Shown here piece by piece: positions 50,693-52,890 of a DNA stretch of 64,000 nucleotides (its first letter is position 1; every line of letters starts with the position of its first letter). The stretch lies in the IMG/VR virus record IMGVR_UViG_3300035498_002028, one strand, 5' to 3'. A program made the translations under genes and the position numbers. This DNA comes from a virus. Taxonomy: Duplodnaviria; Heunggongvirae; Uroviricota; Caudoviricetes. The notes below the pieces were generated by a model, which searched no databases, had not been told where the DNA came from, and saw only the letters and a list, made by a program, of their open reading frames with translations.

Positions 50693-50926
50693 GTTTTGTA
50701 TCTATATAAAATTAGATATATCCAAAACTTACAACTGCATTCTACAGAGAGCTTATAAGTTTTGTACCTATGTAAAATTAGATATATCCAAAACCAAAGG
50801 ATTTATTGGACATAGTTGAGCGTAGTTTTGTACCTATGTAAAATTAGATATATCCAAAACTAAAAAAGTATTAGCGTCCAGCCAGTGTCTGTTTTGTACC
50901 TATGTAAAATTAGATATATCCAAAAC
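50693..50926 (-). CRISPR. Mini CRISPR array 1: four 36-nt repeats (top strand GTTTTGTACCTATGTAAAATTAGATATATCCAAAAC), three 30-nt spacers
   Basis: Repeats at 50693-50728 (degenerate: tctatat for cctatgt), 50759-50794, 50825-50860, 50891-50926. Spacers are 50729-50758, 50795-50824 and 50861-50890, all unique. The degenerate repeat sits at the end far from the conserved leader, so transcription is probably on the minus strand. Confidence 0.85.
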
Positions 50927-51010
50927 CTCAAATCACATAGGTTTTGTTGAGTGAATATATCCTCAACTTCCGGCTGCAAAATCAACCGTTACTCGTCATA
51001 TTAAATGACT
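50927..51010 (-). promoter_or_regulatory. Conserved CRISPR leader module 1 (promoter-like boxes plus hairpin GTTGAG-N10-CTCAAC); possible tracrRNA-like partial anti-repeat
   Basis: About 75% identical to the module beside array 2 (52807-52890). Shared core TCGGCTG.AAATCAACCGTTACTC. Contains gttttgttgagtgaatatatcctcaac, which is partly repeat-like. Confidence 0.55.
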
Positions 51011-51028
51011 TTCTGTGGAGTAGATATT

Positions 51029-52627
51029 CTACTCTTTCTTAATATACTCTTCATGTTGCTTTTTCTTTTGCTCTTTGGTTGTTTTACCATCTGACCATTC
51101 TGTTGACATAGCAATATTTCTAGCTGCGTTAAAATCAGCATTCATTTCTTTGCCGCATTTTAAACACTTAAAATAAGCCTGTTTCTTCTTACCTTTTGGT
51201 CTATTTCCTTTATCTTCGTAGCCGCAACAACTACATCTTTGAGAAGTATGGTATGGGTTTATTTTTCTAACTTCAATGCCGTTTATCTTAGCTTTGTATG
51301 AAATGTATTGTTGTAACTGATAATAACTCCATTTTGCTAGTAAATAATTATTAGCATCAAATCCTTCCAGATTTTCAATATTTATATACTTTGCTTTGTT
51401 TTTGATGGCAAAATCAACAACCTGTTTACTGACAAAATGATTATAATTTTGTACCCAATTTGCTTCATAATCTTCAAATCTATCCATCGGCTTCATTTTC
51501 TTTTTTCGACCATGACCACCATTCGACATTTTTAAAGATGCTTGTAATCTACTGCGTTGATTGCTTATCTTAGTTCTAACTCTAAGAAAATCATCTTTAC
51601 TACCGATACTCTGTCTTACATAATCATTAGTATTTAATGCACACATAGCCGGAATTGCAATGCCTAAATCTACACCAACACATATATTTTTATCAAGTTC
51701 TCTTTTTACTTTCGGAATTTCTAACGAAAGGTTAAGTATTATTTTATCTTTTTTATCATTTCCACTTTTTTGGATTTGAATACTTGACCCACATACTTTA
51801 TACTCTTTAGCGTATACTTTCATTAAGGTTGCCATAAGCTCATCATTATTTTTGCCATGCCCAGTATTGATTTTAAATCTAAATATATGTGGTTTTCCAT
51901 TACCTCCATAATTAAAATAGAGATTAGGTTTTTCGTTTATATGTTCACATAATTCTTCAAACGATTCATAATCGTGTGTAAATGACATTTCTTTGGATGC
52001 GATATCCATAGGGCAATCAGACTTATAATATGGAAGTGTCTGCCTGGCATATGCAAAACCATCTTTAACGCATTCCCAAAATTTATTCTTTAAAGCATTA
52101 ACATATGCAAGTTCATATGACCCAATAGATAAATCAATGTTCATTTTATCTAACATACTACCTTTTGAAGAATTTGGCACACGACTCCAACTATTGAAAA
52201 CATCTGTAACAATCTCTGTTCTTTCCTTTTCATCAATACCTTTTATAATGCAGTCTTTATATGCTGCGCCCATAGCAAACATTGTATGATTCTTAATAAT
52301 TGATTGTTCTTCACAACATTTTCTTATTAAATTGTATGTATAATCATTTACTATTCCAGATGTAAAATCGCCGTTGTCTACTAATTCAATCTTAGATTCG
52401 ATATTAGCAATTTCTTTTTCCCATTTTTCAATTTTATTATTATCTTTCTTTTTACCTTTTTTATTTTCTATTTCAATGAGTTGTTTTTTGTACTCTATTT
52501 TTGATATATAATCTTTATTTAAAAATGAAATAACACTCTTTGTCCAAATAGGACTTGGGCTTTCAATTGGAATAAGCGCATATTTTCTTGTAATTATTAA
52601 AGGTTTTTTACTACTTTTATTTGCCAT
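51029..52627 (-). CDS. TnpB/Cas12-like RNA-guided nuclease candidate (532 aa; RuvC-I/II/III plus C-terminal zinc ribbon)
   Basis: N-terminal ITRKYALIP (TnpB-like first strand), RuvC-I ICVGVDLGIAIPAM, RuvC-II INIENLEGF, C-terminal NPYHTSQRCSCCGYED...FKCLKCGKEMNADFNAARNIA (the TSQ.C..CG ... C..CG ... D.NAA.NI signature). AGGAG RBS. Flanked on both sides by CRISPR arrays. Confidence 0.8.
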   Translation of the reverse strand: MANKSSKKPLIITRKYALIPIESPSPIWTKSVISFLNKDYISKIEYKKQLIEIENKKGKKKDNNKIEKWEKEIANIESKIELVDNGDFTSGIVNDYTYNLIRKCCEEQSIIKNHTMFAMGAAYKDCIIKGIDEKERTEIVTDVFNSWSRVPNSSKGSMLDKMNIDLSIGSYELAYVNALKNKFWECVKDGFAYARQTLPYYKSDCPMDIASKEMSFTHDYESFEELCEHINEKPNLYFNYGGNGKPHIFRFKINTGHGKNNDELMATLMKVYAKEYKVCGSSIQIQKSGNDKKDKIILNLSLEIPKVKRELDKNICVGVDLGIAIPAMCALNTNDYVRQSIGSKDDFLRVRTKISNQRSRLQASLKMSNGGHGRKKKMKPMDRFEDYEANWVQNYNHFVSKQVVDFAIKNKAKYINIENLEGFDANNYLLAKWSYYQLQQYISYKAKINGIEVRKINPYHTSQRCSCCGYEDKGNRPKGKKKQAYFKCLKCGKEMNADFNAARNIAMSTEWSDGKTTKEQKKKQHEEYIKKE

Positions 52628-52638
52628 TATATTCTCCT

Positions 52639-52806
52639 TTTTGATACCCTTGTAATTTCGTAAGGCTCTAAAACCATTGTTTTACCTCCGTTTGATTCAT
52701 TAAAGTTTGATACCCTTGTAATTTCGTAAGGCTCTAAAACAGATTCTTATATAGAAGAATAACACCATTTGTTTGATACCATTGTAATTTCGTAAGGCTC
52801 TAAAAC
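52639..52806 (-). CRISPR. Mini CRISPR array 2: three 36-nt repeats (top strand GTTTGATACCCTTGTAATTTCGTAAGGCTCTAAAAC), two 30-nt spacers
   Basis: Repeats at 52639-52674 (first base t, overlaps the RBS of the nuclease gene), 52705-52740 and 52771-52806 (one mismatch). Spacers are 52675-52704 and 52741-52770. The repeat is related to array 1 (shared GTTT, TACC, TGTAA, AAAAC) but different. Its reverse complement GTTTTAGAGCC... resembles the start of type II repeats. Confidence 0.85.
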
Positions 52807-52890
52807 CTCAAATTACTATTACGCAGATTTTTGTGAGTAGATAATCTCTCACATTTCGGCTGTCAAATCAACCGTTACTCATATTGCTTA
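52807..52890 (-). promoter_or_regulatory. Conserved CRISPR leader module 2 (TTGACA-N17-TATCTA on minus strand; hairpin GTGAG-N10-CTCAC)
   Basis: Homologous to 50927-51010. The hairpin stem differs but is compensatory (GTTGAG/CTCAAC vs GTGAG/CTCAC). Confidence 0.55.

Follow-up and report, generated by a model that had tools for sequence, protein, structure and literature searches.

A phage-borne Cas12f1-type nuclease flanked by candidate tracrRNA genes and mini CRISPR arrays of type II-A format

The phage DNA analysed here (the window, a 64-kb stretch of a ~179-kb genome) very probably carries an interference-only CRISPR system of type V-F (Cas12f1-type) that is built from modular guide cassettes. 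Read along the minus strand, the locus is ordered as tracrRNA-2, the heptamer ATTTGAG, array 2 with three repeats, a ribosome-binding site, the cas12f gene, tracrRNA-1, a second ATTTGAG, and array 1 with four repeats. No Pfam or PHROG match to Cas1, Cas2, Cas4, Cas9 or Csn2 was obtained for the other 30 ORFs of 250 aa or more in the window, or for three shorter neighbours of the locus; this agrees with a preliminary description of the DNA, which had listed cas1, cas2, cas4 and cas9 as missing, and no adaptation genes were found nearby.

The cas12f gene (51029..52627, minus strand) encodes a protein of 532 aa in which the motifs GVDLGI, IENLEG, CSCCG...CLKCG and NADFNAARNIA can be read directly. 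The RuvC triad of Cas12f is intact (D320 in GVDLG, E418 in IENLEG and D498 in NADFNAARN), the zinc-ribbon cysteines are C465/C468 and C488/C491, and all of these residues are invariant or nearly so among 30 aligned homologs. The protein matches Pfam PF07282 (Cas12f1-like_TNB, 7.5e-23), and its best solved relatives, by phmmer against the PDB, are CnCas12f1 (8hr5, 9e-68), RhCas12f (1.5e-54) and Al3Cas12f (4.6e-53). With an AlphaFold2 model of mean pLDDT 84.6 as query, Foldseek placed Cas12f structures at all of ranks 1-22 (8e-29 to 1e-13), TnpB following from 2.6e-12 and Cas12p from 1.7e-8. By sequence and predicted fold, the protein is a Cas12f1-type nuclease of the CnCas12f1/RhCas12f1 clade. 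The motifs, the PF07282 match and the fold bear out the earlier view of a compact phage-encoded RuvC/TNB RNA-guided nuclease, and the HMM and structure searches that had been proposed put Cas12f far ahead of TnpB by both phmmer and Foldseek. The further suggestion of a new type V subtype, or of a step between TnpB and Cas12, does not fit this placement in Cas12f1, and the size, then noted as lying between typical TnpB and most Cas12 proteins, is ordinary for Cas12f. In the JGI annotation the protein is listed as an IS605 OrfB transposase.

That annotation would suit an ordinary IS200/IS605 TnpB with a 3' omega-RNA, in which the repeats are unrelated to the guide or are the iterated ends of a nested IS. 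The NCBIfam search points the same way, as the broad subfamily model guided_TnpB passes (170.6 against a cut-off of 100), Cas12f2 does not (129.7 bits against 450) and no Cas12f1-specific curated family model matches; furthermore, one of the two modules described below lies directly 3' of the stop codon, in the omega-RNA position. This explanation is nonetheless already contradicted, and its chance of being right is negligible. The best matches in sequence and fold are all CRISPR-associated Cas12f proteins, many orders of magnitude ahead of the TnpBs; a second complete cassette upstream of the gene occupies no place for an omega-RNA; the spacers are unique, uniformly 30 nt long, turn over and are added at the leader end; and two spacers of relatives match other phages exactly. 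No transposase or TnpA-like domain was found in the neighbouring ORFs, and the context of the locus differs between phages, with no transposon ends noted. A TnpB of this kind with its omega-RNA was ruled out on the lack of transposase neighbours and on the arrayed 30-nt spacers on both sides of the gene.

Arrays 1 and 2 are the only repeat arrays with a period of 58 to 76 in the 64-kb window. Array 1 (50693..50926, minus strand) contains four 36-nt repeats, GTTTTGGATATATCTAATTTTACATAGGTACAAAAC (50693-50728, 50759-50794, 50825-50860 and 50891-50926), and three 30-nt spacers (50861-50890, 50795-50824 and 50729-50758), and array 2 (52639..52806, minus strand) contains three 36-nt repeats, GTTTTAGAGCCTTACGAAATTACAAGGGTATCAAAC (52639-52674, 52705-52740 and 52771-52806), and two 30-nt spacers (52741-52770 and 52675-52704). 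Two arrays of four and three 36-nt repeats, with unique 30-nt spacers and two repeat types, had been described in the same places and were confirmed there; the identity of the two repeats, first put at about 55%, was counted as 22 of 36 positions (61%). Degenerate repeats at the low-coordinate ends were likewise recovered, with two mismatches in the terminal repeat of array 1 (50693-50728), both within the segment bound by the anti-repeat, and a difference at the last base only in array 2, where the high-coordinate repeat also has one mismatch. The terminal repeat of array 2 is directly followed by the cas12f ribosome-binding site, (A)AGGAG (52634..52638, minus strand, as read from the sequence), so that array 2 would make up the 5' UTR of the cas12f mRNA.

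Each array has a conserved module at its high-coordinate side (50932-50994 and 52818-52880; 63 nt, 73% identity), which the preliminary description took for a shared leader. The module is present beside each array as claimed, although it is not merely a leader: on covariation and homology, it is very probably a compact tracrRNA gene, homologous to the tracrRNA of RhCas12f1. The modules align with the 5' end of that validated tracrRNA (ACGGTTGATTTAGCAACCGAAGTCTGAGG) and are homologous to it over the 5' 30 nt. Comparison, covariation and folding define the tracrRNA-like module of cassette 2 at 52814..52880 (minus strand, like all elements listed here), with stem 1 at 52857-52874, whose loop TTTGA pairs with the repeat end TCAAA in a pseudoknot, stem 2 (GTGAG...CTCAC) at 52833-52852, and the anti-repeat at ~52818-52828; just upstream of this core is a small 5' hairpin, ATATTGC-ATAA-GCAATAT (52881..52898), and relatives have hairpins of differing sequence at the same position. 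The module of cassette 1, delimited by the same three approaches, spans 50934..50994, with stem 1 at 50971-50988, a pseudoknot loop TTTTG (50977-50981) that pairs with the repeat end CAAAA, stem 2 at 50946-50967, and the anti-repeat ACCTATGT (50935-50942), which pairs with ACATAGGT of the repeat; its small 5' hairpin, GTCAT-TTAAT-ATGAC (50995..51009), sits past the cas12f stop codon and ahead of the tracrRNA core. The minimum free energy fold of cassette 1 (-35.7 kcal/mol, z -4.56) recovers all helices. In cassette 2 the match to its own repeat is poorer: the anti-repeat forms 8 of 13 pairs, and the minimum free energy fold adopts an alternative register.

To assess covariation, 103 distinct cassettes of related phages were aligned with MAFFT. 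In this set, 80.5% of cells pair, compared with 29-42% when the partners are slid; there are 402 double-sided changes where slid partners give no more than 157, and the covariation score reaches 0.33, the slid controls staying below 0.10. Both the anti-repeat and the pseudoknot loop co-vary with the repeat of their own cassette. Of the 52 rows with a standard stem 1, 44 have a fully paired pseudoknot, formed by nine complementary combinations that include the TTTTG/CAAAA and TTTGA/TCAAA of the window. In the anti-repeat helix, G-U cells outnumber A-C cells by 97 to 10, an asymmetry that fixes the transcribed strand and bears out the minus-strand transcription proposed earlier for the arrays. 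Specificity within a locus is modest: cognate repeats give 10.5 of 13 anti-repeat pairs and 4.7 of 5 pseudoknot pairs, as against 9.1 and 3.8 for another repeat of the same locus. Two cognate tracrRNAs, one for each array, would explain how one effector serves two repeat types. Several tracrRNA/repeat pairs that evolve together can thereby share a single Cas12f gene, an arrangement of which no description was found in the literature searched.

The module might instead be only a CRISPR leader or promoter common to both arrays, the tracrRNA being located elsewhere or not needed. It does precede each array as the strand is transcribed and ends in a genuine leader-end motif, ATTTGAG, and hexamers resembling TTGACA and TATCTA can be read by eye inside module 2. 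A sigma-70 promoter scan, uninformative in itself, returned fewer such sites than in shuffled sequence, which does not favour a promoter. Also against it are the helices of the module and its two long-range pairings with the repeat, which co-vary over the 103 cassettes, the homology of its 5' 30 nt to a tracrRNA that works experimentally with RhCas12f1, and the excess of G-U over A-C cells, which shows selection at the RNA level. A leader without a guide function is therefore very improbable, and the module is better read as the conserved Cas12f/TnpB guide core, its shape indicated by covariation and RhCas12f1 homology and its function presumed from them.

Of 80 homologous IMG/VR loci, 71 have arrays and 48 have two or more; in those 71 loci one to five tracrRNA-plus-mini-array cassettes surround the gene; because the layout of gene and arrays recurs in this way, it is not due to chance. 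The cassettes are modular, and their number and position vary between phages. Most arrays are very small (99 of 142 have just two repeats), and 163 of 204 spacers are 30 nt long. Spacers turn over between near-identical phages, and one spacer is inverted between sister arrays, indicating that recombination does occur at the repeats.

The five spacers of the window gave no detectable targets in the spacer searches, so the function of this locus is extrapolated from its relatives. Two protospacers were found, both for spacers of relatives and both exact matches in other phages; the targets are Heliusvirales phages of Lachnospiraceae, and a tape-measure gene. Their 5' flanks are TTTT and TTTG, a coincidence with a chance of ~0.1% if flanks are random, which suggests 5' TTTN as a Cas12f-type PAM. 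The closest characterised proteins, CnCas12f1 and RhCas12f1, have C-rich PAMs, unlike the TTTN of these two protospacers. Because the demonstrable targets of relatives' spacers are other phages, the system most likely serves competition between phages. The use against competing mobile elements that had been predicted for this locus thus holds for the spacers of relatives, and the search of the five spacers that had been suggested added no match of their own. In ecological terms, the locus suggests that phages of gut Firmicutes commonly use Cas12f as a weapon against one another.

In the proposed mechanism, each tracrRNA (~60-80 nt) would fold into the small 5' hairpin, stem 1 and stem 2. The anti-repeat would base-pair within the 3' half of its cassette's repeat (...ACATAGGT... 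in cassette 1), and the loop of stem 1 would form a 5-bp pseudoknot with the last repeat bases, just 5' of the spacer. Cas12f, loaded with a crRNA made of the repeat handle plus spacer, would then cut double-stranded DNA beside a 5' T-rich PAM. By analogy with known family members it may act as a homodimer; a homodimer on one guide RNA is known for Un1, As, Cn and Sp Cas12f1 (PMC12255294).

Immediately before the first repeat of each array stands the heptamer ATTTGAG (52807..52813 in cassette 2 and 50927..50933 in cassette 1, minus strand). The junction ATTTGAG/GTTT is a new finding and is exactly the leader end of group-1 type II-A systems, in which the last 7 nt of the leader, ATTTGAG, abut a GTTT repeat (PMC5382924, PMC4330368). 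Over 115 distinct cassettes, the motif is exact in 61, matches at six or more of the seven bases in 97, and never precedes an internal repeat. Both window repeats have the type II-A format, with 36 nt, GTTT...AAAC ends, G first and C last, and 30-nt spacers. In a set of 85 distinct cassettes, GTTT is found in 63 repeats, AAAC in 48 and GAAC in 13, and the period minus 36 equals 30 in 66. The likeness to Firmicute type II-A repeats extends over the whole length: the median identity of internal repeats to 46 type II-A repeats is 0.61, compared with 0.43 for shuffled sequences, and the phage repeats are 61-78% identical to those of Roseburia, Peptoniphilus, Helcococcus, Kandleria and others. The first impression that the repeats look type II-like proved important. 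A cas9-cas1-cas2-csn2 operon and a Cas9-type tracrRNA were not found in the scan of the 30 other window ORFs from 250 aa upwards and three shorter neighbours. Because that scan found no II-A cas genes and the RNA partner is of the Cas12f type, the locus shares only the array format with type II-A and is not itself such a system.

Like type II-A group 1 arrays (PMC5382924, PMC4330368), the phage arrays combine the leader-end heptamer, 36-nt GTTT/AAAC repeats and 30-nt spacers with addition at the leader end. Such gains were seen among near-identical phages (L011 vs L012, L065 vs L064 and L097-L101), and every extra spacer in these cases is leader-proximal and accompanied by an exact extra repeat. 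Because of this array format and the gain of spacers at the leader end, the phage may obtain its spacers in trans through the type II-A Cas1-Cas2-Csn2(-Cas9) module of its host, a step to which we give a chance approaching even. Several points count against it. Type II-A modules choose protospacers by Cas9 PAMs on their 3' side, so that no enrichment for 5' TTTN would be expected; no host genome or host II-A array has been linked to these phages; and a cas1 gene may lie in another part of the ~179-kb phage genome.

The II-A-like features could also be the vestige of an ancestral Cas12f that captured a II-A array, with no present role, and the differences between spacers could come from recombination or cassette exchange. 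The tiny arrays, the modular cassettes of varying number and position, the inverted spacer and the lack of an established host link all suit a vestige. What such a relic leaves unexplained is that ATTTGAG is almost invariant, and confined to the first repeat, despite widely diverged tracrRNAs and repeats, that spacer length is held at 30 nt, and that spacers gained next to the leader bring an exact extra repeat with them, a hallmark of insertion by an integrase. We consider a vestige rather unlikely, although a serious alternative to acquisition through the host.

Another possibility is that the mini-arrays mainly serve the type II-A Cas9 of the host, arming it against rival phages or acting as RNA decoys (Racr-/viral-sgRNA-like), the link with Cas12f being secondary. 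Leader end, repeat length, termini and whole-repeat similarity are all II-A-like; a Cas9 tracrRNA would pair with the conserved 5' half of the repeat (GTTTTAGA...), which a mature Cas12f crRNA does not need; and viral mini-arrays and repeat decoys are known, as are reported phage sgRNA mimics. This use of the arrays is improbable, however, since they flank cas12f in the great majority of loci, each has a Cas12f-type tracrRNA co-varying with the 3' half of the repeat, and both protospacers have the 5' TTTN of a Cas12f-type PAM. Furthermore, no identity to any host array was demonstrated, and effector and tracrRNA are encoded beside the arrays, unlike in effector-less virus mini-arrays. The arrays may nevertheless serve both nucleases.

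The interference-only Cas12f system can be extended, tentatively, to a CRISPR that is chimeric across types, in which a host type II-A module would add spacers in trans and the Cas12f tracrRNA would have captured the 3' half of the repeat. In its full form, this proposal has a widespread phage Cas12f clade using minimal tracrRNAs to read the 3' half of II-A-format repeats, host Cas1-Cas2-Csn2 loading the arrays via ATTTGAG/GTTT, host II-A pre-crRNAs perhaps being loaded as well, and cassettes that are partly orthogonal and exchangeable. Little is known of how CRISPR systems on phages and plasmids obtain new spacers when they lack cas1 and cas2, and the locus offers a testable hypothesis that rests on a defined 7-nt leader end, the repeat ends and natural leader-end spacer gains. 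In the one worked example, type IV-A3 plasmid systems take up new spacers in trans by way of host type I-E adaptation modules (Benz et al.; bioRxiv 10.1101/2023.06.23.546257). They resemble the phage locus as mobile-element CRISPRs without adaptation genes, engaged in inter-element conflict, whose leader and repeats fit a host module of another type. Trans acquisition by type IV-A3 was shown experimentally and stays within class 1, whereas the phage Cas12f locus, from the features above, suggests a crossing from type II to type V with a phage as carrier.

The nearest systems overall are the type V-F1 loci of Clostridia, represented by CnCas12f1 (PDB 8hr5) and RhCas12f1 (PDB 9nzp; sgRNA in the supplement of PMC10090079). 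The phage protein is like these two in effector size (415-532 aa), RuvC triad and TNB zinc ribbon, as well as being closest to them in sequence and fold, although its N-terminal half is only weakly alignable with solved Cas12f proteins. As in the clostridial systems, the locus stands alone, a tracrRNA lies between nuclease gene and array on the same strand, and the stem-1 loop forms a pseudoknot with the last repeat bases; the tracrRNA 5' end of RhCas12f1 (ACGGTTGATTT.GCA.CCG-AAGT-TGAGG) is conserved. In contrast, the carriers are phages of roughly 150-190 kb, several tracrRNA-plus-mini-array cassettes with diverged repeats lie on both sides of one gene, and bacterial V-F1 repeats (e.g., GTTAAAAGCTAACTATAGTGGAATGTAAAT, PMC10090079 supplement) do not have the 36 nt, the GTTT...AAAC ends or the ATTTGAG leader end of the phage arrays. 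The phage tracrRNA also lacks stems 3 and 4 of the 124-nt RhCas12f1 tracrRNA. A scaffold of ~60-80 nt plus a ~15-nt repeat handle, compared with 124-134 nt or more for RhCas12f and Al3Cas12f, is an unusually short core, and its hundreds of natural variants could aid compact genome editors and orthogonal guide design. From type II-A the locus differs in having no cas9, cas1, cas2 or csn2 and Cas12f as effector, and its RNA partner pairs with the repeat in the 3' half (the type V arrangement) rather than in the 5' half (that of type II).

Viral mini-arrays, CasPhi/Cas12j, Cas-lambda and the Cas12p 'hacker' are also phage-borne, with one to few spacers aimed at viruses and no adaptation module. 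Classical viral mini-arrays have no effector and rely on that of the host, whereas this locus encodes its own, and Cas12j, Cas-lambda and Cas12p belong to other Cas12 families (Foldseek 1e-6 to 1e-8, against 8e-29 for Cas12f). To our knowledge, CasPhi and Cas-lambda are described as working without a tracrRNA. The sigma-associated dCas12f/TnpB systems (PMC10691335) are likewise Cas12f-derived, with a minimised array next to the tracrRNA and a guide unit duplicated for several targets. In those systems, the nuclease has lost its activity and the repeat is joined to the tracrRNA as an omega-RNA, whereas the phage Cas12f keeps an intact RuvC triad alongside genuine repeat-spacer arrays whose spacers turn over.

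The locus brings together a Cas12f1-type gene, cognate tracrRNA-like RNAs of conserved structure, arrays that turn over, and junctions and repeats in the type II-A format. The gene is an ORF of 532 aa at 51029-52627 on the minus strand, with the motifs GVDLGI, IENLEG, CSCCG...CLKCG and NADFNAARNIA. It is flanked by array 1 (50693-50926, minus strand), with four 36-nt repeats and three 30-nt spacers, and by array 2 (52639-52806, minus strand), with three 36-nt repeats and two 30-nt spacers, each of which has on its high-coordinate side a module (50932-50994 and 52818-52880, minus strand), the two modules being 73% identical. 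The preliminary description, which had reported the ORF with its RuvC signature, the two arrays and a conserved module at the high-coordinate end of each, was accurate on these points. The two repeat types are identical at 22/36 positions, and a periodicity scan found no further arrays of the same period anywhere in the 64-kb window. Because 31/31 window ORFs of at least 250 aa lie on the minus strand, phage transcription runs in the same direction as the nuclease gene, the two modules and the two arrays. Module 1 starts 19 nt past the cas12f stop codon, and array 2 runs directly into the AGGAG of cas12f, so that the upstream cassette (module, heptamer ATTTGAG and mini-array) would form the 5′ UTR of the nuclease mRNA. 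Scans of the 30 remaining window ORFs of 250 aa or more and of three shorter neighbors of the locus gave no family match to Cas1, Cas2, Cas4, Cas9 or Csn2, which agrees with the absence of cas1, cas2, cas4 and cas9 noted earlier; megablast of the locus against GenBank phages gave no match.

The 532-aa protein carries a Cas12f1-like TNB domain (Pfam, 7.5e-23); in NCBIfam it falls into the broad guided_TnpB subfamily, with the Cas12f2 model below its cut-off. Its best sequence matches in the PDB are CnCas12f1 (8hr5, 9e-68), RhCas12f (9nzp, 1.5e-54) and Al3Cas12f (9nzo/9nzr, about 5e-53), followed by the As, Os, Un1 and Sp Cas12f enzymes. With an AlphaFold2 model built from 30 homologs (mean pLDDT 84.6), Foldseek returned only Cas12f structures down to rank 22 (8e-29 to 1e-13); TnpBs followed from 2.6e-12, the phage-borne Cas12p "hacker" scored 1.7e-8, and Cas-lambda and CasPhi-like proteins were weaker, scores that rule out Cas12p, CasPhi and Cas-lambda as the family of the protein. 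The family conserves the catalytic residues D320, E418 and D498 as well as the zinc-ribbon cysteines. Together, the PDB, Pfam and Foldseek rankings and the conserved catalytic residues identify the protein, by sequence and predicted fold, as a Cas12f1-type nuclease and a new member of a known family, rather than the undescribed type V-like subtype or TnpB-to-Cas12 intermediate that had been proposed. Its size, described earlier as above that of typical TnpB and below that of most Cas12 proteins, is ordinary for Cas12f.

Homologs are numerous, with 1255 proteins (90%-identity clusters) at E ≤1e-20 in the protein database; the best 120 of them are full-length proteins, mostly of 510-580 aa, with 43-56% identity, many being encoded on contigs of 100-230 kb. 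A scan of IMG/VR with the single protein as query found nothing, and one with an alignment of homologs as query recovered 80 loci, the majority on viral contigs spanning 50-190 kb. By a simple periodicity scan, mini-arrays with a period of about 66 lie beside the gene in 71/80 loci, upstream, downstream or on both sides, and 48 loci have at least two arrays. The arrays are short (n = 142), with two repeats in 99, three in 29, four in 10, five in 3 and six in 1, and 163/204 family spacers are exactly 30 nt long. No array was found within 2.5 kb of the gene in nine of the 80 loci (L039, L048, L058, L059, L061, L066 and L083-L085), which may be relatives without arrays, either TnpB-like or degenerate, or may have arrays further off.

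The modules had been described as a shared leader; covariation, a pseudoknot and the likeness to the RhCas12f1 tracrRNA argue that each is instead a tracrRNA-like RNA gene. Read in the orientation of the gene, every cassette presents the same order of elements: a small hairpin whose sequence varies, stem 1 (for example CGGTTG-ATTTTG-CAGCCG), AAAG, stem 2 (GTGAGG...C-A-CTCAC), YAAAA, an anti-repeat complementary to the 3′ half of that cassette's own repeat, a variable linker, ATTTGAG and the first repeat. When 103 distinct cassettes are aligned with MAFFT from sequence alone, 80.5% of the cells at the 31 proposed pairs are paired, versus 29-42% when partners are slid by 1-3 columns; double-sided changes occur in 402 cells versus at most 157 with slid partners, and the covariation score is 0.33 versus <0.10. 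The anti-repeat:repeat helix is 84% paired, with compensatory changes at nine of its pairs, and contains 97 G-U versus 10 A-C cells, an excess indicating that the RNA is made from the gene-sense strand. In the pseudoknot, five bases of the stem-1 loop pair with the five bases preceding the last base of the repeat. It is fully paired in 44/52 rows with a standard stem 1, in nine complementary combinations (TTTTG/CAAAA, TTTTA/TAAAA, TTTCG/CGAAA, TTTGA/TCAAA, TTTGG/CCAAA, TTCAG/CTGAA, CTTTG/CAAAG, TTTCA/TGAAA and TTCGA/TCGAA), a tally that understates the pseudoknot because the first "canonical stem 1" filter retained 52/103 rows; in the other cassettes, inspected by eye, the pseudoknot element is kept and extra hairpins are inserted in loops. 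The two window cassettes use TTTTG/CAAAA (cassette 1, that of array 1) and TTTGA/TCAAA (cassette 2, that of array 2). Cassette 1 folded by itself shows all four helices in its minimum-free-energy structure (-35.7 kcal/mol, z -4.56). No Rfam family covers the modules or the repeats, and a sigma-70 promoter/terminator scan gave fewer matches than shuffled sequence.

Module size varies through loop insertions. In one group of cassettes stem 2 is interrupted by about 100 nt of inserted sequence, and others have one or two extra hairpins in the stem-1 loop, past the pseudoknot element (GGYGTGTTTTGG...ACGCC); the loci with loop inserts are L011, L012, L015, L019 and L087 (downstream cassettes), L028-L044, L033 and L046-L057. 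The linker of many cassettes also contains a second anti-repeat, this one pairing with the repeat's 5′ half, as in L010 (GATAGGTATC with GATACCTATC); the two anti-repeats could give a nearly full-length duplex, a candidate substrate for RNase III.

The validated guide of RhCas12f1, taken as the reference for comparison, starts ACGGTTGATTTAGCAACCGAAGTCTGAGG...CCACTCGG, and its repeat handle TGGAATG-TAAAT pairs with the anti-repeat CATTCCA and the loop ATTTA (PMC10090079); the window modules start ACGGTTGATTTTGCAGCCGGAAGTTGAGG and ACGGTTGATTTGACAGCCGAAATGTGAGAG. Like the RhCas12f1 tracrRNA, the phage modules share the core of stem 1, pseudoknot and stem 2, which has been described as conserved in Cas12f guides and TnpB reRNAs (PMC12255294). 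Unlike it, the phage version passes from stem 2 straight to the anti-repeat and is thus about half as long as the Rh tracrRNA. A candidate single guide for this Cas12f would read module-GAAA-ACAUAGGUACAAAAC-spacer.

Each array is thus predicted to supply its own tracrRNA, with two repeat types served by one nuclease. Modules and repeats of the same cassette form 10.5/13 anti-repeat pairs and 4.7/5 pseudoknot pairs, versus 9.1/13 and 3.8/5 for non-cognate combinations within the same locus; the predicted matching is only partly exclusive. In the standard register, cassette 2 of the window is a rather poor match to its repeat (8/13 anti-repeat pairs).

The arrays themselves follow the format of another CRISPR type. 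Both window cassettes have the heptamer ATTTGAG in front of the first repeat; it is exact in 61/115 distinct cassettes of the family and agrees at 6/7 bases or better in 97/115, and it was never found in front of internal repeats of the family cassettes. ATTTGAG/GTTT is the exact leader-repeat junction of group-1 type II-A systems (PMC5382924). The heptamer was also considered as a Bacteroidetes-type -7 promoter element (TAnnTTTG), a reading rejected because the flanking bases misfit and the motif is the exact type II-A leader end. Type II-A repeats are 36 nt long, start with GTTT and end with AAAC, and the phage repeats are likewise 36 nt, GTTT...AAAC, with a 30-nt spacing; the bacterial Cas12f repeats listed with RhCas12f1, in contrast, are without any of these features. 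Compared with 46 type II-A repeats from the supplement of the leader-repeat paper, the phage repeats have a median best identity of 0.69 (maximum 0.78). Over internal positions 5-32 the median identity is 0.61, versus 0.43 for shuffled repeats (95th percentile 0.54), and 83% of the phage repeats exceed that percentile. The best type II-A partners include Roseburia (a genus of Lachnospiraceae), Peptoniphilus, Helcococcus and Kandleria; the survey cited also counts Dorea, Eubacterium rectale and Roseburia among the carriers of type II-A loci.

Within one and the same cassette, near-identical sister phages differ in their spacers, and where one spacer is common the extra spacer is leader-proximal (L011 versus L012, L065 versus L064, and the L097-L101 set). 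The five window spacers have no second copy within the window, and the BLAST search proposed for them, run against GenBank phages, found no target; neither did exact 24-mers of two of them against IMG/VR, nor searches of JGI metagenomes with two and of GTDB genomes with two, using queries unable to match the arrays themselves. A search with all 172 family spacers yielded one real protospacer in GenBank phages, and four more family spacers searched against IMG/VR yielded one protospacer and otherwise sister arrays only. Eight Heliusvirales phages of Lachnospiraceae, Agathobacter, Coprococcus and Dorea contain a match to L023 spacer 1 (29/29 in six records, 28/29 in two) with the 5′ flank TTTT, and the newest spacer of L011 matches at 30/30 the tape-measure gene of two other viral contigs with the 5′ flank TTTG; the PAM reading rests on these two protospacers, both of relatives' spacers. 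A spacer of L076 (2074-2103) occurs inverted, over 27-30 nt, in the homologous arrays of L062, L064, L065 and L068 (about 2116-2146), a pattern suggestive of inversion between the repeat ends, which are palindromic (GTTTTA...TAAAAC); the L076-L062 match was accordingly discarded as a phage-phage target, being the same spacer inverted in sister arrays.

We infer with high confidence, from these sequence features, that the RNAs would guide Cas12f to cut the DNA of competing phages beside a T-rich PAM. How spacers are gained is less certain. By analogy with type IV-A3 plasmid systems, which gain spacers via type I-E modules (bioRxiv 10.1101/2023.06.23.546257), a host type II-A adaptation module might insert them in trans, a real possibility that falls a little short of being probable; type II-A adaptation itself, however, would not select a 5′ TTTN PAM. 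An arrangement of several co-evolving cassettes of tracrRNA and mini-array around one phage cas12f, in the type II-A format, appears to be undescribed in the literature searched, and an earlier description is possible.

The window is a replication and counter-defense region of a large phage, and the same Cas12f protein is found in the protein database on a contig of 178,866 bp. The replication genes encode a DNA polymerase, DnaB helicase, DnaG primase and NAD-dependent ligase. RNA-repair genes encode an RNA ligase (14768-16078), RlaP (23607-24644), a CCA-adding enzyme (21308-22573) and a kinase/HD protein (12662-13675). A phage tmRNA (tag ANTELKAVA) and five tRNAs (Lys, Trp, Gln, Leu and Phe) occupy sites at 57532-58431 (minus), 48917-48999 (minus) and 25821-25894 (plus). 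The counter-defense-type genes, all on the minus strand (11297-12163, 17040-17861, 18847-19644, 28647-29444, 34375-35187, 36315-37304 and 49189-49944), encode a Tad2-like (anti-Thoeris) domain fused to HNH/AP2, an ADP-ribosylglycohydrolase, and DNA methyltransferases, of which the window has at least five (N6/N4, Dam-like (D12), two C5 and another N6); an N6 methyltransferase gene lies about 750 bp from array 1.

The minus strand at 50126-50201 reads as a circularly permuted tRNA-Trp(CCA), with the 3′ half (anticodon loop, T arm and acceptor 3′ strand) at 50160-50201 and, after a 2-nt gap, the 5′ half (acceptor 5′ strand and D arm) at 50127-50157; ARAGORN recognizes a tRNA-Trp once the two halves are put in the usual order. 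The native sequence has a sub-threshold Rfam match (31.3 bits, E 6.7e-5, gathering score 69) to YrlA, a tRNA-mimicking Y RNA-like family, and no Ro/TROVE protein was found among the scanned ORFs near it. An intergenic motif of about 28 nt, in which AGAAGGATGRA starts on the plus strand at 50066, 50207, 50301, 53264 and 54812 and which reads CGGCTA-N-TTCATCCTTCT on the minus strand, is present in five copies versus 0.23 expected. All five lie just past the ends of minus-strand ORFs near the CRISPR locus, two of them flanking the YrlA-like element, and the motif could be a phage regulatory or processing signal. Finally, at about 58-64 kb on the minus strand, ORF translations reveal at least seven paralogous small ORFs that share the N-terminal motif MK(I/Y)RxDFVTNSSSSS(F/Y).
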